From contig JAJPHT010000006.1 in the NCBI GenBank assembly GCA_021325135.1, positions 18,481 through 82,480 of the forward strand: a stretch of 64,000 nucleotides of DNA. Direction: 5' to 3'. This document shows positions 80-12,836 of this stretch, piece after piece. The first letter of the stretch is position 1; every line of letters begins with the position of its first letter. The stretch is from Pseudomonadota bacterium. Lineage in GTDB: Archaea; Thermoplasmatota; SW-10-69-26; JACQPN01; JAJPHT01. The notes beneath the pieces are model-generated. The model worked only from the letters and a program-made list of their open reading frames with translations, had not been told where the DNA came from and searched no databases. A program made the translations under genes and the position numbers.

Positions 80-1087
80 TTGCATGGATGGGAACGGGGT
101 GGAAGCGGCAAGGTGGAAAAAGCGAGAACAAGAAGGGAACACGATTCAACGCGTCTCTGGGCTCGGGAGATGGCTCAACGCTGGGTCGTGGGTGAGTATA
201 ATCTGGTTTGGGCGCTTCTTCGCGCCGCCGGCCGTTGCCTTGCGGGCGACGCCGGGGAGTTGTGGAACGTGCGCGAGCCAGAGGCAGGGCGGGTAGGATT
301 GGGCGAGATCGACGTCGTGGCGCCGGCGGCTTTGGAGGTGGAGGCGCGCGCGATCAGGTTTCGCAAGATCCCCGTGGTGGAGTACGACTGGGAGGGCGAC
401 CACGAAGGCCCCCTGGCCGTGCCCGGAAGCGCCATGGTGTTCATCGCCAAGAAGGGCTCCCCCGTCCTCAAGGAGATCCGGGCCGCGGCGAAGGCCCGTA
501 ACGGGAGCGACGCCGGCGTGGCGCGAAAGGTCTTCTCGCCCTTCCGCGAGCGGCGCCCCATGGCGCTCGCCGATGCCGTGGAGCTCCTGAAGCGCCAGCC
601 CGTCTTCGCCTCGATCCAGTACGGCGGCCTCACGCTGGCGACGTCGCTCTTCGTGGACGAGGGTCTCCACGCCTGCGTGGTTCCCCTTCCCTACAATGGA
701 GGACGCCTGGCGAAGGAGGGGTTCACCCTCGTCGAGCACGTGAAGGACGGGGCCAAGGACGCGTTGGACGCGATCGTCCTGGCGCGAGCGCCTCCCCTGA
801 CGCCGGCCGAGAAGGCGGCCTTGCGCCGCGTCCCGGCAAGCCAGCTTGGCCTCAACGTGGGGAAGGCCGCGGACTGCTGGGGCGTCACCGCCATCGCCGT
901 CGTCGCGGTCGTCGTCCTGGGCGTGGTCGCCGTCACCACCACCGGCTGCCATCCGGGCATGCGCGGCGGGCCCCTGGTGCGCCCACCCGCCATCGCGGCC
1001 GATCGCATCAAGAAGCTGGGCCCCGCCGCGACGGCTCGCGAGCTGCTCCGGCTGCGCCGGGAAGCCTTCTCCCAGGTCCAGAGGTGA
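80..1087 (+). CDS. Hypothetical protein with an internal hydrophobic Cys-bounded segment; candidate precursor/substrate of the adjacent LinL/LinG (SdpA/SdpB)-like proteins. True start probably TTG/GTG at about 260-338.
   Basis: Long ORF whose TGA overlaps the next GTG (GTGA at 1084-1087); contains CWGVTAIAVVAVVVLGVVAVTTTGC (875-949) followed by a charged C-terminal tail. Confidence 0.7.
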   Translation: MHGWERGGSGKVEKARTRREHDSTRLWAREMAQRWVVGEYNLVWALLRAAGRCLAGDAGELWNVREPEAGRVGLGEIDVVAPAALEVEARAIRFRKIPVVEYDWEGDHEGPLAVPGSAMVFIAKKGSPVLKEIRAAAKARNGSDAGVARKVFSPFRERRPMALADAVELLKRQPVFASIQYGGLTLATSLFVDEGLHACVVPLPYNGGRLAKEGFTLVEHVKDGAKDALDAIVLARAPPLTPAEKAALRRVPASQLGLNVGKAADCWGVTAIAVVAVVVLGVVAVTTTGCHPGMRGGPLVRPPAIAADRIKKLGPAATARELLRLRREAFSQVQR

Positions 1088-1605
1088 AGTCCACGCCTGG
1101 CGCTCTCTTGGACGCCATGGTCGTGGCCCTCTTCGGCTCCTGGCTTCTCCTCACCATCCTCTGCCAGGTCCCGGGCAGGGCATCGTCCTACCTGCGCACG
1201 TGGGACTTCCTTGGCCTGATCCCCGAGTGGAACTTCTTCGCGCCCCACCCCAACACCGGGGATTACCACCTCCTCTACCGCGATCGGCTCCTTGATGGCA
1301 GCTTCACGGAGTGGACGGAGCTGCGCCAGAGCGAGTCGTACCGCTGGTGGCATGCCGTGTGGAACCCGGCCCGGAGGCGCAAGAAGGCGCTCTTCGACCT
1401 GACCGCCGCCTTGGCCCGGGAGATCCGCGAGGCGCCCGACACCCTCCAGGTCTCCATGGCCTACCTCTCTCTTCTGCAGCACGTCTCCAGCCTGGGTCGC
1501 CCAGAAGCGGTGGTGGGAACGCAGTTCATGATCATGCGCTCCCACGGGATGATCTCCACCCAAGAGCCGGACGTCATGATGGTCTCCGAGGTGCATGGGC
1601 TCTGA
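1084..1605 (+). CDS. LinL/CypL-like (SdpA-like) membrane-anchored protein
   Basis: N-terminal TM helix, then LIPEWNFFAPHPNTGDYHLLYRD and WNPARRRKKALFD motifs typical of partners of HTTM proteins. Confidence 0.7.
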   Translation: MKSTPGALLDAMVVALFGSWLLLTILCQVPGRASSYLRTWDFLGLIPEWNFFAPHPNTGDYHLLYRDRLLDGSFTEWTELRQSESYRWWHAVWNPARRRKKALFDLTAALAREIREAPDTLQVSMAYLSLLQHVSSLGRPEAVVGTQFMIMRSHGMISTQEPDVMMVSEVHGL

Positions 1606-2423
1606 ACCCCTTCTCGGACCCCCAGGTGGCGGTCGGCGCCGTGGAACGCCTCATCGCCGTCGCGGTGATCGTTTGCACCGCGGAGCTCCTGGCCCAGCCT
1701 CGCGTCCTGAGCGACGAAGGCCTCCTGGGGTGGGAGGTGGCGCGCCTTCGCCACGCATGGTTTGTCCACGGCCCCCTCTCCTGGATCATGGACGCCTGCT
1801 GCAGCTATCCGCGCGTGCTCGTCCTCCTCGGCGTCCGCCTCCTGCTCGCCCTTGCGCTCCTCGTGGGCGTGCCCCCGGGCTGGCCGCACGTCCTCCTGCT
1901 GGGCGCCCTGGCCTTGGTCTGGATGATCTCCTTTCTCCGCGTGCCCCAGGGGGCCGACGGGGCTGACCAGATGATCACCCTCGTGCTCGTCTCCCTCGCC
2001 ATCGCCGGCCTCGCCGCCATGATGGGCGCTCGCTTCGCCTGGAGCGTTGCCCTCGCCTTCGTCGCGCTCCAGGCCGTCGTCTCCTACGCCACGGCGGGCA
2101 TCGCGAAGGCGACCTCCTCGTCCTGGAGGAGCGGCGCGGCGCTCCCGGGCATCGCCGGCACCGACATGTACGGCAACAGGTCCGTGGCGCGTTTTCTCCA
2201 AGCCCGACCCAGGACGAGCCGATTCCTCGCGCGGGGCATCATCGTGTGGGAATGCTCCTTCGTCCTGGTCCTGCTCCTCCCCCTGCCGTGGGCGGTCCTC
2301 GTAGTGGCCAGCGGCGTCGCGTTCCACCTCCTGAGCGCCTTCGGGATGGGCCTCAACACCTTCCTGTGGGCATTCCTCGCCACCTACCCCGCCCTCTTCC
2401 ACGCCCTTGGCTTCCTTGGGTGA
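1602..2423 (+). CDS. HTTM-domain integral membrane protein, LinG/CypH-N-terminal or SdpB-like (probable CTG start; alternative GTG at 1626)
   Basis: Multiple TM helices; GADGADQM, ALQAVVSYATAGIAK, WRSGAALPGI and FHLLSAFGMGLNTFLWAFLATYPA motifs; GAGGTG SD upstream of the CTGA overlap. Confidence 0.75.
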   Translation: MNPFSDPQVAVGAVERLIAVAVIVCTAELLAQPRVLSDEGLLGWEVARLRHAWFVHGPLSWIMDACCSYPRVLVLLGVRLLLALALLVGVPPGWPHVLLLGALALVWMISFLRVPQGADGADQMITLVLVSLAIAGLAAMMGARFAWSVALAFVALQAVVSYATAGIAKATSSSWRSGAALPGIAGTDMYGNRSVARFLQARPRTSRFLARGIIVWECSFVLVLLLPLPWAVLVVASGVAFHLLSAFGMGLNTFLWAFLATYPALFHALGFLG

Positions 2424-2523: not shown

Positions 2524-3333
2524 CTAGCTGGCCATCCACATCAGCGCCCCGCACCGCTCCTCGTGGCGCAGCTTCCCCTCCGTCTCCAGGGATAGCAATT
2601 TCTCGGTGGCCACGTCCTCCAGCCAGTCGCACGCCTCGGCGATCTCCGCCGTGGCGAGGCGGCCGTGGCGGCGCACGAGGTCCACGGGGTCGGGCGCGGG
2701 GGCGTCGACCCAGCGCGCGCCGCTGATGCGCGTGAGCGCGGCCTCGAACGCCTCGGTGGGCTGGAAGCCGGAGAGCGCGACCTCGACGCCGCGCGCGTTG
2801 CGGAAGACGACGGTGGGGAAGCCGGTGACGCCCTTGAGGCGCCCCTCGGCCTGGTCGCCGTAGAATTCCCGGGTGGCCTCGTCGGTCTCCATCGCCTCGC
2901 GGAAGCCCTGCGCGTCGACGCCGCAGGCCTTGGCGATCTCCTCCTGCACCTCCAGGGCCTCGATGTTGCGGCCGTCCATGAGGGAGGCCTCGCGCAGCGC
3001 GCGCAGGTAGCGCGGGAACGCCTCGGGCGAGACGAGGGCGGCGGCCTTGGCGGCGATGCCCGCGCGCACGGTGGTGCCGGGCCACGGCTTCAGCACGATG
3101 TCGGGGTCCAGGGGCATGCCGCTGGCGCGCCGCGCGGCGCTGAACATGCGGCGGATCTCCTCGCGGGGGAACTCGGGGCCCACGGGCGACTCGACGATGG
3201 CGCCCAGCTTCACGCGGAAGTCGATCCCCTCGCCGTGGCGCTCCTTGAGGCGCAGCAGCTGGGGCTCCAAAGCCCAGCACCACACGCTCCACGGGTCCGT
3301 GTAGTGCGTGACGACGACGGGATCGTGGCGCAT
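2524..3333 (-). CDS. DsbA/YjbH-like thioredoxin-fold protein with C-terminal winged helix
   Basis: YTDPWSVWCWALEP and GVTGFPT motifs; ATG at 3333. Confidence 0.8.
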   Translation of the reverse strand: MRHDPVVVTHYTDPWSVWCWALEPQLLRLKERHGEGIDFRVKLGAIVESPVGPEFPREEIRRMFSAARRASGMPLDPDIVLKPWPGTTVRAGIAAKAAALVSPEAFPRYLRALREASLMDGRNIEALEVQEEIAKACGVDAQGFREAMETDEATREFYGDQAEGRLKGVTGFPTVVFRNARGVEVALSGFQPTEAFEAALTRISGARWVDAPAPDPVDLVRRHGRLATAEIAEACDWLEDVATEKLLSLETEGKLRHEERCGALMWMAS

Positions 3334-3433: not shown

Positions 3434-4633
3434 ATGCCCGCCAAGAAGGCCCCCGCGAAGCGAGCCGCCCGCAAGTCCGCCGAGCCCCAGGAGGGCTTCG
3501 AGACGCGGGCCATCCACGCGGGGCAGGCGCCCGACGCCGCCACCAACGCGGTCGTCACGCCCATCCACCTCACCACCACCTACGCGCAGGACGGCCTGGG
3601 CGGGCACAAGGGGTTCGAGTACTCGCGCAGCGGCAACCCCACGCGGCAGGCGCTGGAGACGTGCATCGCGAGCCTGGAGGAGGGCGCGCGCGGGCTCGCC
3701 TTCGCCAGCGGCCTCGCCACGCTCACCACCATCGGCATGCTGCTGGAGAAGGGCGACCACGTCGTGCTGGAGGAGAACGCCTACGGCGGCACGGTGCGCT
3801 ACTTCAACCAGATCGCGCAGCGCTTCGGCGTGGAGGCGACCTACGTCGACGCGTCCGACCCGGCCAACGTCGAGAAGGCGTGGCGCAGGAACACGAAGAT
3901 GCTCCTGGCCGAGACGCCCACCAACCCCAACCTCAAGCTCCTGGACCTGGAGCGCCTCGCGAAGATCACCGGCGCGCACGACGCGCTCCTCGTCGTGGAC
4001 AACACGTTCGCGACGCCCTACCTCCAGCAGCCCCTCAAGCTGGGCGCTGACGTCGTCTGGCACTCGGCGACGAAGTATCTTGGTGGCCACAGCGACGTGA
4101 TCGCGGGCGTCGCCGTCGCCAAGGACCCCGAGGTGGGCGACCGGCTCAAGTTCCTCCAGAACGCGGCCGGCGGCGTGCTCGGCCCCTTCGACAGCTACCT
4201 CGTGCTGCGCGGCATCAAGACGCTGGCCGTGCGCATGGAGCGCCACAGCGAGAGCGCGCTGGAGATCGCGAGCTTCCTCGCCTCGCACCCCAAGGTCACG
4301 CTGGTCAACTACCCGTGGCTCGAGGAGCACCCGCAGGCGAAGCTCGCGCAGCGCCAGATGCGCCTGGGCGGCGGCATGCTCAGCTTCGAGGTCAAGGGGG
4401 GCAAGGCCGGCGCGGTGCGCTTCCTCAAGGGCCCCAAGATCTGGACGCTGGCCGAGAGCCTCGGCGCGGTGGAGAGCCTCATCTGCCACCCCGTGAGCAT
4501 GACCCACGGCTCCATCCCCAAGGAGCAGCGCGAGAGGAGCGGCGTCACCGACGGGCTGCTGCGCCTCTCTGTCGGCTTGGAGGACGTCGACGACCTCAAG
4601 CGCGACCTGGAGCGCGGGCTCGCGCTGGTGTGA
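3434..4633 (+). CDS. Cystathionine gamma-lyase/gamma-synthase (PLP-dependent transsulfuration enzyme)
   Basis: YSRSGNPT, ETPTNP, VDNTFATP, HSATKYLGGHSD and LAESLGAVESL motifs. Confidence 0.95.
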   Translation: MPAKKAPAKRAARKSAEPQEGFETRAIHAGQAPDAATNAVVTPIHLTTTYAQDGLGGHKGFEYSRSGNPTRQALETCIASLEEGARGLAFASGLATLTTIGMLLEKGDHVVLEENAYGGTVRYFNQIAQRFGVEATYVDASDPANVEKAWRRNTKMLLAETPTNPNLKLLDLERLAKITGAHDALLVVDNTFATPYLQQPLKLGADVVWHSATKYLGGHSDVIAGVAVAKDPEVGDRLKFLQNAAGGVLGPFDSYLVLRGIKTLAVRMERHSESALEIASFLASHPKVTLVNYPWLEEHPQAKLAQRQMRLGGGMLSFEVKGGKAGAVRFLKGPKIWTLAESLGAVESLICHPVSMTHGSIPKEQRERSGVTDGLLRLSVGLEDVDDLKRDLERGLALV

Positions 4634-6529: not shown

Positions 6530-7912
6530 ATGAGCCGCGCTTGGGCTTGGCTGGGCTTCGCCGTCGCCCTCATCCTGCTCGCTCCCTCCGCGTCGGCCGC
6601 CAAGGCGGCCTCGCTCCAGATCGTGGGCTCCTCGCGCGCCACGGGCGCGGCGGACGCGCTCTTCGCCATCGCCGACGGGCGGGGCCTCTCGTGGAGCGCC
6701 ACCGCCAAGGAGATCGTCGTCGAGCGCGACGGCGCGAACTTCACCCGCATCGACGCGATCAAGTCCACGAGCTACGGCCGCGTCGAGCAGGCCTCCCAGG
6801 CCTACGGTCCCGGGGAGCTCCACGGCCTGGAGGCGCGCGACGGGGGCGCCATGCTGGCGCGCTCGCTGGGCGCGCCCTTCTCGGGCGTCACCTCCACCGG
6901 GTCGCGCCTCGTCGCGGTGGGCATCCAGGACCCCTCCTTCGCCGAGTTCGGCGCCTCCGACGTGCGCACCTCGCAGACGACGCACCTCTACGTCGACGAG
7001 TCCATGCCCGGTCGCTTCGTGAACCTCACCTCCTCGGGCGGCGACTTCGAGCTGCGGGGCACGCTCCTCCTGGTCCTCTACGACGTGGACTACGCCGTCA
7101 CGACCGCGCAGGGCTCGGCCGTCGAGCGCACGGGCCGCTTCGAGAGCGCCAGCGTCGCGGGCGTGACGCAGGGGCGCGACGAGCAGCAGCGCGTGACCCT
7201 GGTGGACGCCGTTCTCACGCTCCACGCCCCAGGCGAGGCCGCGCTCTTCGCCTCGCAGGGGCACGTCGACTTCAACGGCATCCTCTCGCTGCAAGGGGGC
7301 GACGCGCCCCTCGCAGCGCCGGGGCTCGCGCCGCTGGCGGCCGCGGAGGGCGAAGGGCGCTACCAGGGAAGCTCCTCCCTGGACCTGGCGCCGGCGGGCG
7401 GGTCGGCCCTGCGGCTGGAGTCCGCCCGCGCGCCCTCCCCGCTGGCGCCCGTGGCCGAGGGCGCCTCCGCCCCGCTCCTCGCCTTGGCCGCCCTCGTGCT
7501 CGTCGCCATCGCGGGCGTGACCTTCGGGCTCTCGCGCCGCGCCCGCCGCGCCGCGGACGACACCGCCGCCGCGCTCCTCGCCATGGAGGAGCGCCGCTTC
7601 GCGGACGCGCTGGCTCCGCTGGCCCGCGCCCTCGCGCGCCGCCCGCAGGACGCGCTCCTCCACCTGGACCTGGCGCTCTGCTTGGAGGAGACGGGCCGCG
7701 GGGAGGAGGCGCGGAGGCAGTACGAGACGACGCTGGGCCTCGCCCCCGCCAACGCGGAGGCGCTCTACTACTACGCGCGCCTGCTGGCCCGCCAGCGCCG
7801 CCCCGCCGAGAGCGCCGCGCACCTGGCCGAGGCCCTCGTGCTGGACCCGCGCCTCACGGACATGGCGCGCGCCGAGCAGGCGTTCCGCGGGATGACCGGC
7901 ATCTCCGTCTGA
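6530..7912 (+). CDS. Membrane-anchored protein: signal peptide, large extracellular beta-rich domain, TM helix, cytoplasmic TPR repeats
   Basis: GGAGG SD before ATG 6530; TM LLALAALVLVAIAGVTFGL; TPR motifs (LHLDLALCLEETGRGEEA, ALYYYARLL...DP). Confidence 0.8.
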   Translation: MSRAWAWLGFAVALILLAPSASAAKAASLQIVGSSRATGAADALFAIADGRGLSWSATAKEIVVERDGANFTRIDAIKSTSYGRVEQASQAYGPGELHGLEARDGGAMLARSLGAPFSGVTSTGSRLVAVGIQDPSFAEFGASDVRTSQTTHLYVDESMPGRFVNLTSSGGDFELRGTLLLVLYDVDYAVTTAQGSAVERTGRFESASVAGVTQGRDEQQRVTLVDAVLTLHAPGEAALFASQGHVDFNGILSLQGGDAPLAAPGLAPLAAAEGEGRYQGSSSLDLAPAGGSALRLESARAPSPLAPVAEGASAPLLALAALVLVAIAGVTFGLSRRARRAADDTAAALLAMEERRFADALAPLARALARRPQDALLHLDLALCLEETGRGEEARRQYETTLGLAPANAEALYYYARLLARQRRPAESAAHLAEALVLDPRLTDMARAEQAFRGMTGISV

Positions 7913-7926
7913 TCCGCCCTCGCTTC

Positions 7927-8085
7927 TGGGTCCGGCGGCGTTCTCTTCCTGGTCACCACGCAACGCCACGACGCCACGGCGCCACGACGCGACGAACGAG
8001 GAACCTTTGTTTCCCAATCGTCGCGTCGTGGCGTCGTGGCGTCGTCGCGTCCAGACGTGACAAGAAGGAGAACACCAGCGACCCC
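7927..8085. repeat. Long intergenic inverted repeat (hairpin) with arms built from 8-bp tandem units CGCCACGA
   Basis: Four units at 7964-7995 pair with four at 8018-8049; outer arms 7941-7956 and 8057-8072 also pair imperfectly. Confidence 0.85.
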
Positions 8086-8241
8086 ACCAAGGACGGAGAG
8101 CCAACCTCACGGCCGGACCGGCAACCCAGGAAAACGCGGGCGAAACGCGGCGTCCCGAGAGGATCACGTACCAACGGAATGGTCTTATACCGCTTGTCGC
8201 ATCGGCGCCGCGAGGGCCCTACCCTCTGGAGCGCGCCTGTC

Positions 8242-8613
8242 GTGGCGGAAGCGACACTCGGGAAGTACGTTCCCATCCTCATGTTGGCCGCGCTGGGCTT
8301 CGTCATCATCTTCGTGACGCTCATGCTCACGAAGCTGGTCGCCCCGCGCCGTCCCACCGCAGGCTTCCTCTCCACCTACGAGTCGGGCGAGGTGCCGGTG
8401 GGCAACGCCCGCGGGCCCATCGACGTGCAGTACTACCTGTACGTCATCGTGTTCCTCGTCATCGACATCGAGGCCGTCTTCCTGATCCCGTGGGCGCTGC
8501 GCTTCGCGAAGCTGGGCGCCGCGGGCCTCGTGGAGATGGCCATCTTCGTCGGCCTCGTCCTCCTGGGCTGGGCCTACGCCTGGAAGAAGGGGGCGCTGGA
8601 GTGGCAAAGCTGA
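8242..8613 (+). CDS. nuoA: Complex I-like subunit A
   Basis: TYESGEVP and FDIEAVF-like ([12 protein letters not shown]) motifs, WKKGALEW; GTG start. Confidence 0.95.
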
Positions 8614-9143
8614 TCACGCAGATCGGGGACACCGACGTGGCCCCGGACAAGGACCCCAACATCATCCTCACCCAGGTGGACAAGCTCCTCAAGTGGGGGC
8701 GCTCCAACTCGCTCTGGCCCCTGGGCTTCGGCCTCGCGTGCTGCGCGATGGAGATGTTCGCCACCATCGGCTCCCATTATGATATCGCGCGCTTCGGCAG
8801 CGAGGTGTTCCGCTCCTCGCCCCGCCAGGCGGACCTCATGATCGTGCCCGGCACGCTCACGAAGAAGATGGCGCCCCGCGTGAAGAAGCTCTGGGACCAG
8901 ATGCCCGAGCCCAAGTGGGCCATCGCCATGGGCGCGTGCGCCACCTGCGGCGGCCCCTACCAGAACTCCTACTCCACCGTGCTTGGCGTGGACAAGGTCA
9001 TCCCCGTGGACGTGTACGTCCCGGGCTGCCCTCCGCGCCCCGAGATGCTGCTGGAGGGCCTCATCCGCCTCCAGGAGAAGATCCGCGCCGACCCGCGCAT
9101 CAGCCCCGGCCTGGAGAAGTACCTCACGCGGAAGGTGGCCTGA
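8601..9143 (+). CDS. nuoB: Complex I-like subunit B
   Basis: [30 protein letters not shown]. Confidence 0.97.
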
Positions 9144-10145
9144 GTGGCCCTTCCCGACAGCGGCAGCGTCGAGGACTACACCGAGGCCGAGATGGCCGAG
9201 CTGGTGAAGCTCAACGAGACGGACAAGTCGAAGCTCACCAAGAACCAGAAGGCCGCCATCGCCCGCTACAACTTCAAGAAGGGCAAGGGCGAGCCCATCC
9301 CGTTCAAGGGCAGCGGCGTCGCGGCCGCGCCCGCCCCCGCCGGTGCGGCCGCACCTGCGGCCGCCGCCGGCATGGACGACATCATCAAGTCGCTCCCCCC
9401 GGAGATCCAGGCCCTCGCCGCGCGCGACCCGGCCTCGCTCTCCAAGGATGAGAAGATCGCGCTGGCCAAGGCCAAGAGCCAGGCCGTCCGCGCGCAGGCC
9501 GCCGCGGGCAAGCCCGCCGAGCCCGAGAAGCCCAAGGGACCCACCCCCGAGGAATTGGCCGCGCAGAAGGCGCTCACCTTCGCCTGGGCCAAGGAGCTTG
9601 ACGGCAAGTTCGGCAAGACCGAGCCGAAAGGCGAGGGGCCGACGAGCCGCAGCTCGTTGGGCCCAGCCATCGACGCGTGGGGCATGCAGACGCAGATCCC
9701 CTACGCGACGGTGAAGCCCGAGCGCATCCTGGACGTCGTGCGCTACCTCCAGATGGAGATGGGCTTCGACCAGCTTCGCGACCTCGCGGGCACGGACTAC
9801 CCGCCCACGCACCTCGAAGTGGTCTACAACCTGACCTCCCACGAGGGGCACCGCCACATCGCGCTCAAGGCCAAGGTCCCCCGCCAGCCCGCGGAGGGCA
9901 TGGACCTGCCCGCGCTGCCCAGCGTCTCGTCGGTGTTCAAGGGCGCCGACTGGCTGGAGCGCGAGGTGTACGACCTCCTGGGCATCCGCTTCCTGGGCCA
10001 CCCGTACATGGTGCGCCTGATGCTGCCCGAGGGCTGGGTCGGCCACCCCCTGCGCAAGGACTACGACCTCAAGACCGAGCAGTTCGTGGGCCTCGACGAG
10101 AAGGGCAACGACATCGTGAGCTTCAGGAGTGAGGACGGATGGTAA
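9144..10145 (+). CDS. nuoC: Complex I-like subunit C with long N-terminal extension
   Basis: ADWLEREVYDLLGIRFLGHP...GHPLRKDY; position between nuoB and nuoD. Confidence 0.93.
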   Translation: MALPDSGSVEDYTEAEMAELVKLNETDKSKLTKNQKAAIARYNFKKGKGEPIPFKGSGVAAAPAPAGAAAPAAAAGMDDIIKSLPPEIQALAARDPASLSKDEKIALAKAKSQAVRAQAAAGKPAEPEKPKGPTPEELAAQKALTFAWAKELDGKFGKTEPKGEGPTSRSSLGPAIDAWGMQTQIPYATVKPERILDVVRYLQMEMGFDQLRDLAGTDYPPTHLEVVYNLTSHEGHRHIALKAKVPRQPAEGMDLPALPSVSSVFKGADWLEREVYDLLGIRFLGHPYMVRLMLPEGWVGHPLRKDYDLKTEQFVGLDEKGNDIVSFRSEDGW

Positions 10146-11317
10146 CGCCAGTCCCCCCCGTGCGCGCGCCGCACACGCCCACCCACGGGGCCCACGGCCA
10201 GCGCCTCGTCATGATCAACATCGGCCCCCAGCACCCGGCCACCCACGGCGTGCTGCGCCTGAAGGTCATGCTCGAAGGCGAGATCATCCGCGACGTGGAG
10301 CCCGTGCTGGGCTACCTCCACCGCGGCGTCGAGAAGCTCTTCGAGGACGGCAGCTACCTCCAGGCCATCCCCATGACGGACCGCCTGGACTACCTGGCGG
10401 CCATGCACAACAACTACGCGCTCTGCCACAGCGTCGAGACGCTCATGGGCGTCAGCGCGCAGATCCCCGAGCGCGCGCAGTACATCCGCGCCCTCACCAC
10501 CGAGGTCCAGCGCATCGCGTCGCACCTGCTCTGGCTGGGCGCCTTCGCCCTGGACATGGGCGCCATGACGGTCTTCTGGTGGGCCGTGCGCGACCGCGAG
10601 GGCGCCATCGCGCTCCTGGAGCGCCTCTCGGGCGCCCGCCTCACGTACAACTGGTTCCGCATCGGCGGCGTTAAGAACGACCTGCCCCCCGGCTGGCTCG
10701 AGGAGTGCAGCCGCTACATCCGCTACATGCGGACGCGCCTCCAGGAGTTCGACAACCTCCTCCTGGACAACGACATCGTCAAGCTCCGCACCGTGGGCGT
10801 CGGCCCCCTCACCAAGGAGATGGCGAAGAACTACGGGTGCAGCGGCCCCATGGCGCGCGGCAGCGGCCTCGACTGGGACCTGCGCCGCGACGAGCCGTTC
10901 AACCCCGTCTACCAGAAGATCAAGTGGAACGTCATCACGCGCAAGGAGGGCGACGCCTACGCGCGCTTCATGTGCCGCTTCGGCGAGATGACGGAATCGC
11001 TGAACATGCTGGAGCAGATGATCGCCCAGATCCCCTCGGAGGGCGACTACATCAGCCCGGAGATCGGCGAGGGCCCGCGCCAGCACCGCGTCAAGCCCCC
11101 CGCGGGCGAGGTGTACGCGGCCGTCGAGGGCGCGCGCGGCGAGTACGGCTGCTACATCGTGAGCGACGGCACCAACCGCCCCTACCGCTTCAAGTGGCGG
11201 GCGCCCACGCTGCACAACCTCATGCCGCTGAACGAGATGGTGCGCGGCCAGAAGATCCCCGACCTCATCGTGGGCCTGGGGAGCATCGACATCGTGCTGG
11301 GCGACATGGACCGGTGA
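10139..11317 (+). CDS. nuoD: Complex I-like subunit D
   Basis: NIGPQHPATHGVLRL, GYLHRGVEK, C-terminal GSIDIVLGDMDR; no Ni-binding CxxC. Confidence 0.97.
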   Translation: MVTPVPPVRAPHTPTHGAHGQRLVMINIGPQHPATHGVLRLKVMLEGEIIRDVEPVLGYLHRGVEKLFEDGSYLQAIPMTDRLDYLAAMHNNYALCHSVETLMGVSAQIPERAQYIRALTTEVQRIASHLLWLGAFALDMGAMTVFWWAVRDREGAIALLERLSGARLTYNWFRIGGVKNDLPPGWLEECSRYIRYMRTRLQEFDNLLLDNDIVKLRTVGVGPLTKEMAKNYGCSGPMARGSGLDWDLRRDEPFNPVYQKIKWNVITRKEGDAYARFMCRFGEMTESLNMLEQMIAQIPSEGDYISPEIGEGPRQHRVKPPAGEVYAAVEGARGEYGCYIVSDGTNRPYRFKWRAPTLHNLMPLNEMVRGQKIPDLIVGLGSIDIVLGDMDR

Positions 11318-11323
11318 GACGCC

Positions 11324-12382
11324 ATGGCTTTCCTCCTTCCCGACGCCATCACCAACCTCCTGGAGCCCTACACGGGCCACGTCGCGGCGCGGCTCATCGC
11401 GTGGTTCGTCATCGCGTTCCTCCTGCTCAACTTCGTCATGGCCGTGGGCGGCCTCATGAGCTACATCATGCGGAAGTTCATGGCCCGCGTGCAGACGCGC
11501 GTCGGCCCCAACCGCGTGGGCCCCTTCGGGCTGCTCCAGTTCCTCGCCGACGGCGTGAAGATGGTCGCCAAGGAGGAGGTGCGCCCCGCGCAGGCCGACA
11601 AGTGGGCCTACCGCATCGCGCCCTACCTCGTCCTCCTCCCCATCATGATCGCGATGGCGCCCCTCCCCTTCGGCGAGGGCGTGCTCCTCAGCGACCTGCG
11701 CTTCGGCTTCCTCTTCATCATCGCCGTCTCCGCCATCTCGCCCATCGGCGAATTGGTCGCGGGCTGGGGCAGCAACAACAAGTACGCGACCTACGGCGCC
11801 GTGCGCGCGGCCTCCCTGGACGTCTCCTACGAGATCCCCATGGTGCTCGCGGCCGTGAGCGTCGTCATCCTCGCGGGCTCTCTCTCCACGCAGGACATCG
11901 TGGGCCACCAGCAGCCCCTCTGGTTCGTCTTCCTCCAGCCCGTGGGCGCGTTCATCTTCTTCGTGTGCGCGCTGGCCAAGGCCGGCGTCGTCCCCACGGA
12001 CCTCGGCGAGTCCGAGTCCGAGCTGATCGCGGGCTGGTTCACCGAGTACGGCGGCATGAAGTTCGGCATGTTCCAGCTCAACGTCTTCTTCGGCGTCGTC
12101 TTCATCGCGATGCTGGAGGTCATCCTCTTCTTCGGAGGCTGGAGCGTGCCCTTCGTCACGAGCGCCGTCGCGTTCAACATCGACTGGCTGCCCCTCCTGG
12201 GCGTCGTCGTCTTCCTCGCGAAGACCGTGATCCTCACGAGCATGGTGCTCCTGACCTGGTTCACGCTGCCCCGCCTGCGGCCCGACCAGTTCCTCACCCT
12301 GGGCTGGAAGGTCCTCTTCCCGCTGGCGCTCCTCAACCTCGTGGTCACCGCGGGCTTCGTCTACTACCTCGGAGGTGCTTGA
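11324..12382 (+). CDS. nuoH: Complex I-like subunit H
   Basis: RVGPNRVGPFGLLQFLADGVK, ESELIAGWFTEYGG, LPRLRPDQ. Confidence 0.97.
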   Translation: MAFLLPDAITNLLEPYTGHVAARLIAWFVIAFLLLNFVMAVGGLMSYIMRKFMARVQTRVGPNRVGPFGLLQFLADGVKMVAKEEVRPAQADKWAYRIAPYLVLLPIMIAMAPLPFGEGVLLSDLRFGFLFIIAVSAISPIGELVAGWGSNNKYATYGAVRAASLDVSYEIPMVLAAVSVVILAGSLSTQDIVGHQQPLWFVFLQPVGAFIFFVCALAKAGVVPTDLGESESELIAGWFTEYGGMKFGMFQLNVFFGVVFIAMLEVILFFGGWSVPFVTSAVAFNIDWLPLLGVVVFLAKTVILTSMVLLTWFTLPRLRPDQFLTLGWKVLFPLALLNLVVTAGFVYYLGGA

Positions 12383-12836
12383 TATCACCCGCATTCCGGT
12401 CGTCGGCATGGCGAAGGGATTCAAGGAGACGCTCAACGCGTTCTTCAAGAAGCCCGTGACCGTGGAGTACCCCGAGGAGTTCCGCGACGTCCCCGAGAAC
12501 TACCGCGGCCGCATCAAGGTCTACATGGACCTGTGCGTCGGCTGCACCACCTGCTCGCTGGTGTGCCCCAACGCGACCTGCCAGATGGAGGCGGTGGACT
12601 ACCACCACCCCAAGAACAAGCGCGCGATCTTCCCGCGCATCGACGTCATCAGCTGCATGTACTGCGGCCTCTGCGAGGAGGCGTGCCCCACGGACGCCAT
12701 CCGCCTGGAGAAGGAGTTCCCCGTCAGCATGTACGACCGGAGCCTCTTCGACTACGACTCGTACGAGATTTCCAAGGACCAGGGCCAGGTGGACCTGGAG
12801 CGCGCCCAGAAGGGCGGAGCGAGCAAGATCCCCTGA
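12375..12836 (+). CDS. nuoI: Complex I-like subunit I (2x[4Fe-4S])
   Basis: CVGCTTCSLVCP and CMYCGLCEEACP. Confidence 0.96.
   Translation: MLDITRIPVVGMAKGFKETLNAFFKKPVTVEYPEEFRDVPENYRGRIKVYMDLCVGCTTCSLVCPNATCQMEAVDYHHPKNKRAIFPRIDVISCMYCGLCEEACPTDAIRLEKEFPVSMYDRSLFDYDSYEISKDQGQVDLERAQKGGASKIP

Follow-up and report, generated by a model that had tools for sequence, protein, structure and literature searches.

Gene organization of the locus

Three translationally coupled genes lie close to the left terminus of the window, by which is meant the whole 64,000 nt stretch of DNA that was analysed. They are all on the plus strand and, as a sequence-only reading of this DNA had described, overlap at GTGA (1084–1087) and CTGA (1602–1605). 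Gene 1 (269–1087; 272 aa, GTG start) specifies a putative scaffolded precursor of an unannotated family; gene 2 (1084–1605; 173 aa) a DUF5819-related protein of LinL type that has a single N-terminal TM helix and a domain that is probably cytoplasmic; and gene 3 (1602–2423; 273 aa) a stand-alone, LinG-like HTTM membrane protein. The motifs reported for the two enzymes are present, namely WNFFAP and DYHLLYR in gene 2, and DGADQ (within G.DGADQ at 1956–1970, plus strand), ALQ..SY..AG..K and WRSG in gene 3. The start of gene 1 had been placed at the TTG at 80, but this was rejected in favour of GTG 269, which is most likely the true start because a homologue of 86% identity (locus L003) begins at the equivalent place and a G-rich, Shine-Dalgarno-like GGGGAG (254–259, plus strand) lies ahead of it, an arrangement repeated in L003. 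The CTG start of gene 3 was deduced from a similar element, GAGGTG (1588–1593, plus strand), and from the closest homologue, also of L003, being called as 273 aa.

As had been stated, no LinE, methyltransferase or transporter gene is found downstream of the cassette, and a check of the 10 kb lying 5' of the window found no LinE-like sequence there either. The genes that follow are a DsbA-like thioredoxin (2524–3330, minus strand; Pfam E 2e-23) and a cystathionine gamma-lyase-like gene (3434–4633, plus strand), both host genes that are syntenic in same-genus genomes, and the start of a nuo-type (complex I-like) operon occupies about 8300–12400. The DsbA-like gene was considered as an accessory of the cassette and rejected, as it is a syntenic host gene that also occurs without the cassette.

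The gene 1 family: scaffold, putative core and follower

The product of gene 1 has three parts. A conserved, folded N-terminal scaffold or leader (299–874, plus strand), modelled by AlphaFold2 with pLDDT mostly above 90, includes PYNGG at 689–703 (plus strand) and ends at 874 with the conserved motif L-T-x-A-E-x-A-A-L..VP..Q..NVG. It is followed by a putative core (875–949, plus strand), recognized by composition, variability and low pLDDT at residues 195–223, which consists of 25 uncharged residues between two Cys, is rich in Val and Ala, and has four Thr. Last come conserved follower helices (989–1078, plus strand; LGPAATARELL..RR) with an invariant Arg and pLDDT of 96–97. The whole model has a pLDDT of 86.6, and its single low-confidence stretch, residues 195–223, corresponds to the variable insert, which invariant residues flank on both sides.

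The family comprises 415 cluster representatives (E 0.001 or better), and every named member is labelled hypothetical. Gene 1 has no match at E 1 in Pfam or NCBIfam, and the only match of the family libraries to any of the three genes is a sub-threshold one between gene 2 and DUF5819. Neither the family nor its architecture was found described in the literature searched, which mostly did not extend to subscription journals, although the enzymes, LinL and LinG, are already known. Fold searches with the model were similarly empty (Foldseek best E 0.12, VIA best Z 2.9, Atlas TM at most 0.34), which does not prove a new fold, and an Atlas feature search was blank. Longer fused forms were sought and none were found, itself weak evidence. 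In one homologue (P0159:1-130) the N-terminus is extended, and the extension weakly matches a helix-hairpin-helix (E 5e-4).

Conserved flanks and a variable core had been anticipated, and the mean pairwise identity across the family is 31% for the scaffold, 21% for the insert and 42% for the follower. In the alignment used, inserts are 29–55 aa long, with outliers of up to about 280 aa. A Cys occurs among the first ten insert residues of 99 of 115 members, with a second Cys at least ten residues further on in 72 of 115. The uncharged part has a median length of 26 aa and contains 24% Ala, 19% Val, 12.6% Thr, 8% Leu and 3.4% Ser; Glu and Asp are absent from it, and each makes up only 3–4% of whole inserts. 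Cores are hydrophobic enough (KD19 at least 1.8 in 105/115 members) to pass as membrane segments. Their composition differs from that of the gene 2 and gene 3 TM helices, which are Leu-rich and Thr-poor (about 5% Thr). A signal-like N-terminal hydrophobic stretch was seen in none of the 115 members, so the earlier suggestion that gene 1 lacks a signal peptide holds across the family. Self-cleavage by the scaffold was considered and rejected: it has no conserved Ser or His, and the sole conserved Cys is the first residue of the core.

Within one subfamily, 19–20 of 25 core residues are kept while the scaffolds are merely 42–45% identical; core types thus stay conserved on divergent scaffolds, which indicates that selection acts separately on the core. 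Other members have cores poor in Thr or Cys, or inserts with long acidic repeats, and the Gly-Asp-Ala repeat inserts that reach about 280 aa show that the loop at this position is permissive. In L006:6956-8458, P0067, P0033 and P0118, the hydrophobic core is followed by very long repeats, either Gly-Asp-Ala or acidic. Gene 1 is present in tandem copies in locus L020, and L097 (Reticulibacter) carries a second precursor of 133 aa made up of the leader end, a different core and the follower, without a scaffold.

Linkage and distribution of the cassette

Co-occurrence of gene 1 with the enzyme pair proved consistent: gene 1 is succeeded by gene 2 at every one of the 27 distinct informative loci, of which 18 were found via gene 1 alone, and gene 3 comes next wherever the contig reaches far enough. 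When loci were picked through gene 2 instead, a gene of similar size lay directly upstream in 6/6, and five of these were confirmed as gene 1 family. The 27 loci span at least four bacterial phyla, and many soil bacteria carry the cassette. Named hosts include Nocardia, Streptomyces, Rhodococcus, Chloroflexia, Ktedonobacteria, Bryobacteraceae and Verrucomicrobiales, and gene 1 is also present in a Phycisphaerales genome. No fourth gene is conserved across the cassette loci, and proteases, exporters and immunity genes likewise show no conservation. In Ktedonobacteria, the loci also contain a LinC-like oxidoreductase that shares 43% identity with one from a linaridin cluster, but this is modest evidence since the oxidoreductase family is common. 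An MsbA-type ABC (LinT-like) transporter gene occurs in two of the ktedonobacterial loci (L007 and L097). The LinE profile matched none of 47 gene 1 loci, many of them short, and its best match in the host genome (E 2.5e-10) lies on a separate contig; conversely, none of the LinE-bearing loci examined contained gene 1.

Several related arrangements were encountered. In Streptomyces G122 (L068:about 6770-8379), a LinL/LinG pair close to the gene 1-linked family is preceded by an ORF of about 75 aa with a follower-like end motif (14 bits) and no scaffold, a possible mini-precursor. In Streptomyces G164 (L069:6246-8919), a LinL/LinG pair has no gene 1 match and adjoins a RimK-type ATP-grasp ORF on the opposite strand. 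The LinH clusters at L071:8644-8946, L072 and L073 have 100-aa precursors with a follower-like C-terminal extension past the hydrophobic core. On the Haloplanus plasmid NZ_CP098516.1 (L084:3433-6369), a haloarchaeal LinL/LinG-like pair is preceded by an ATP-grasp gene and by an ORF of 77 aa that has no annotation and repeats the motif SCGGPGCGGPSC; a YcaO/SagB cluster occupies the other strand, and the whole is possibly a hybrid archaeal RiPP cluster. A different cassette was seen in Streptomyces (L087, L088 and L092), consisting of a small signal-peptide ORF with DUF5819-like and HTTM genes, to which L087 and L088 add a beta-lactamase-like membrane protein.

Relationship of genes 2 and 3 to linaridin enzymes

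The sequence-only reading had compared the pair with both linaridin and SDP enzymes, and it was the former likeness that was upheld. Gene 2 is LinL-like (hhalign probability 99.8%, E 8e-29; profile E 1e-25 to 1e-35 against linaridin clusters), and gene 3 is LinG-like (profile E 1e-44 to 1e-55). In cypemycin-type (type A) clusters, located through the cypemycin-type core pattern, E values were 1e-25 to 1e-27 for gene 2 against LinL and 1e-44 to 1e-45 for gene 3 against the LinH N-domain, with pairwise identities of 35–37% and 30–33%, respectively. The G.DGADQ motif is common to gene 3 and the linaridin enzymes and does not align in SdpB or generic HTTM proteins. Matches of the gene 3 homologue profile to Streptomyces fell into two bands, an upper one (E 1e-41 or better) of LinH fusions, stand-alone LinG and the gene 1-linked cassette, and a lower one (mostly 1e-6 to 1e-15) of generic HTTM proteins. 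In a tree that left out Bacillus SdpB, scaffold-linked gene 3 proteins and linaridin LinG/LinH share a single branch (100/100) separate from generic HTTM proteins, within which the scaffold-linked proteins are not one resolved clade.

Three residues of gene 3, K169, W175 and F254, are invariant. The K/R bias puts the gene 2 domain inside the cell in 110/114 homologues, and a cytoplasmic domain fits a precursor without a signal peptide. A fold search with the gene 2 model gave nothing (best Z 3.9), and searches of PDB sequences with profiles of both enzymes were empty. A prediction of the three-chain complex scored a median of 0.06 and is not drawn on as evidence.

Dehydrobutyrine in the product defines the linaridins as a class; how LinL and LinG install this residue and D-residues is poorly understood. 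CypH-N and CypL are said to suffice for dehydration and epimerisation. Deletion of cypL or cypH abolishes linaridin formation, and grmL, a proposed epimerase, is indispensable for grisemycin, which contains D-residues (PMC10373908).

Host and origin

The host is archaeal, as its RpoB scores above the TIGR03670 cut-off and the product of the CBS gene upstream of the cassette clusters with a Thermoplasmata protein. Contamination of the bin was considered and rejected, since flanking genes have orthologues of 64–90% in same-genus genomes. Gene 1 was not found in 60 relatives, including all 20 other genomes of the class, and in a same-genus genome the flanking CBS and dsbA-metB genes are syntenic but enclose different genes. 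Most of the family is bacterial, and the absence from 60 relatives together with the variable slot points to a transferred bacterial system rather than the archaeal one first supposed. Horizontal acquisition, also proposed earlier, is well supported. The codon usage cited for it bears this out mildly: the GC3 of the cassette (0.90–0.92) is below that of dsbA, metB and nuoD (0.98–0.99) and corresponds to the 22nd–30th percentile of the genome. The archaeal gene 3 protein shares a group (100/96) in the tree with a copy from Verrucomicrobia, copies from Ktedonobacteria and metagenomic ones. The same cassette lies beside a different neighbour in L003, where the next gene looks like an archaeal endonuclease IV, and a divergent copy is found near a transposase on a Rhodococcus plasmid. 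The variable slot is also occupied, upstream of the window (L001:7181-8571), by a tandem pair of paralogous ORFs, each about 200 aa long, secreted-looking and rich in Ala, Val and Thr.

Interpretation and alternatives

What was observed is homology, linkage of the genes, a gene 1 built in three parts and a sporadic distribution. The explanation preferred for this, with some confidence, is a minimal linaridin-related peptide-modification (RiPP) cassette that lacks LinE and whose core is dehydrated or epimerised, which would probably be a previously undescribed route to modified peptides. That gene 1 is the substrate appears very probable and that the chemistry is linaridin-like appears reasonably probable, but release of the core as an active peptide is a more tentative proposal. 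Genes 2 and 3 would combine into a single membrane enzyme resembling a split vitamin-K carboxylase; the domain of gene 2 would lie on the cytoplasmic side, where the enzyme would meet its substrate, gene 1. The scaffold and follower helix are envisaged to co-fold and present a hydrophobic, Thr/Cys-rich loop of roughly 20–35 residues, which would enter an active site embedded in the membrane. There, C-alpha deprotonation could convert Thr to dehydrobutyrine and/or L- to D-residues; as MloH carboxylates C-alpha, we infer that such deprotonation is a plausible common step. The two core Cys might also become linked. In the least certain step, the core would be excised by proteases, placed elsewhere in the genome because the cassette has no LinE, and become a membrane-active peptide. 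On this reading the cassette moves horizontally and has been taken up by a Thermoplasmata-like archaeon. Speaking against the explanation are the lack of any conserved processing, export or immunity gene (LinT occurs in 96% of linaridin clusters, and legonaridin is lost on deletion of legE), the near-absence of linaridin leader motifs, the membrane-segment hydrophobicity of the core, and members with cores poor in Thr or Cys or with long acidic repeats. A further, rather speculative idea is that gene 1 is a new kind of precursor, whose scaffold of about 230 residues, for which no structural match is known, clamps both ends of the loop core and so replaces the LinE hydrolase, the two never having co-occurred in the loci examined.

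The closest alternative accepts that the pair modifies gene 1 but takes the product to be the whole protein, which would insert into membranes as an effector or serve for display and would at no point give up its loop. No protease or cleavage motif is conserved, the scaffold far exceeds NHLP leaders (about 80 aa) in length, and the loop is bounded on both sides by invariant residues, all of which would suit such a protein; this reading is nevertheless unlikely, given that the scaffold-less precursor and the tandem copies suggest that the loop is cargo, and that LinC-like and ABC transporter genes occur at some loci. Carboxylation of the quinone-dependent, GGCX/MloH-like kind, or a redox reaction, could also be performed by the pair in place of dehydration, with gene 1 as substrate or accessory subunit. 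A preprint models DUF5819-HTTM as a split GGCX/MloH-like enzyme, the DUF5819 partner being predicted to complete it and the quinone (vitamin K) pocket containing Lys189, Trp195 and Phe273 (bioRxiv 10.64898/2026.08.19.745780). The invariant Lys, Trp and Phe of gene 3 have about the same spacing; GGCX was not among the matches returned by the gene 2 model and the sequence searches. The pair is, however, far nearer to linaridin enzymes than to generic DUF5819/HTTM proteins, the cores lack the acidic residues Glu and Asp, which are also scarce in whole inserts, and no DCC domain is fused to the pair, so that this alternative seems quite improbable.

Membership of an SDP-like cannibalism toxin operon, in which genes 2 and 3 would be SdpA and SdpB processing a secreted, SdpC-like toxin, is disfavoured and the most remote of the explanations weighed. 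The layout is alike, with an internal hydrophobic segment that begins at a Cys, as in SDP (C141–S182; PMC6818787), and 6 of 13 gene 3 homologues have weak matches to the SdpB family TIGR04033. The best of these reached only E 2.8e-6, gene 3 of the window was unmatched, and the SdpA family TIGR04034 matched neither the host genome nor 17 homologues. The SDP side of the earlier reading was not supported by profile comparison, as hhalign probabilities were 1.3% for gene 2 against SdpA (a mere trace), 49% for gene 3 against SdpB (which scored only about 1e-4) and 0.4% for gene 1 against an SdpC-family toxin. In addition, gene 1 has no signal peptide, SdpI and SdpR are absent, and the gene order differs.

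Should the scaffold do the work of LinE in the linaridin-related cassette, three genes would suffice to make dehydrated, D-residue-containing and possibly Cys-bridged peptides or modified proteins, and such products would be made in both bacteria and archaea. Native linaridin precursors are small and hydrophobic. Here, a system of three genes whose folded substrate is probably soluble and whose core occurs in hundreds of natural variants should make the enzyme chemistry directly testable, and the family could serve peptide engineering as a means of displaying loops. The cassette would escape surveys scoring short PxxxTP precursors. Linaridin-type chemistry would extend past Actinobacteria to Chloroflexota, Acidobacteriota, Verrucomicrobiota, Planctomycetota and a Thermoplasmata-like archaeon, whereas in the survey of Georgiou et al. 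all but two linaridin clusters were actinobacterial.

Comparison with known systems

Bacillus SdpABC and YitPOM resemble the cassette in having a large precursor, an internal hydrophobic segment beginning at a Cys and a two-protein HTTM maturation pair, but the cassette precursor has no detectable homology to theirs and no signal peptide, the enzymes are distant, and immunity genes are missing. Proteusins, with NHLP or Nif11 leaders, similarly combine a structured, conserved leader with divergent cores rich in Val, Ala and Thr (PMC12537861). The gene 1 scaffold, in contrast, has over twice the length of their leaders, surrounds the core on both sides, has no family match and no Gly-Gly site (GG or GA precedes the Cys in 2/115 members), and the cassette enzymes are different. 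GGCX, MloH and the DUF5819-HTTM pairs share the HTTM domain with invariant Lys, Trp and Phe, but gene 3 belongs to a separate clade.

The linaridin clusters, represented by cypemycin, grisemycin and salinipeptin (type A) and by legonaridin, pegvadin and corynaridin (type B), are the nearest in kind. They share LinL and LinG/LinH-N homologues at 30–37% identity with the motifs G.DGADQ, AG..K and W.FF[AG]P, and Thr-rich, hydrophobic cores (a mean of 3.1 Thr in linaridins and 3.9 per insert in the gene 1 family); LinT, present in 96% of linaridin clusters, has counterparts at some cassette loci, as does LinC. They differ in that the core of the cassette lies inside a folded precursor of about 270 aa and is succeeded by a follower, while linaridin precursors are 60–70 aa with PxxxTP, a leader motif seen in 1/115 gene 1 members (FANxxL in 0/115). 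The cassette also lacks LinE, LinM and LinD, although deletion of legE blocks legonaridin, and is spread over many phyla and an archaeon. Altogether, the cassette is not an Sdp operon but would act like a linaridin system, from which it departs in two features, LinE and the short PxxxTP precursor.
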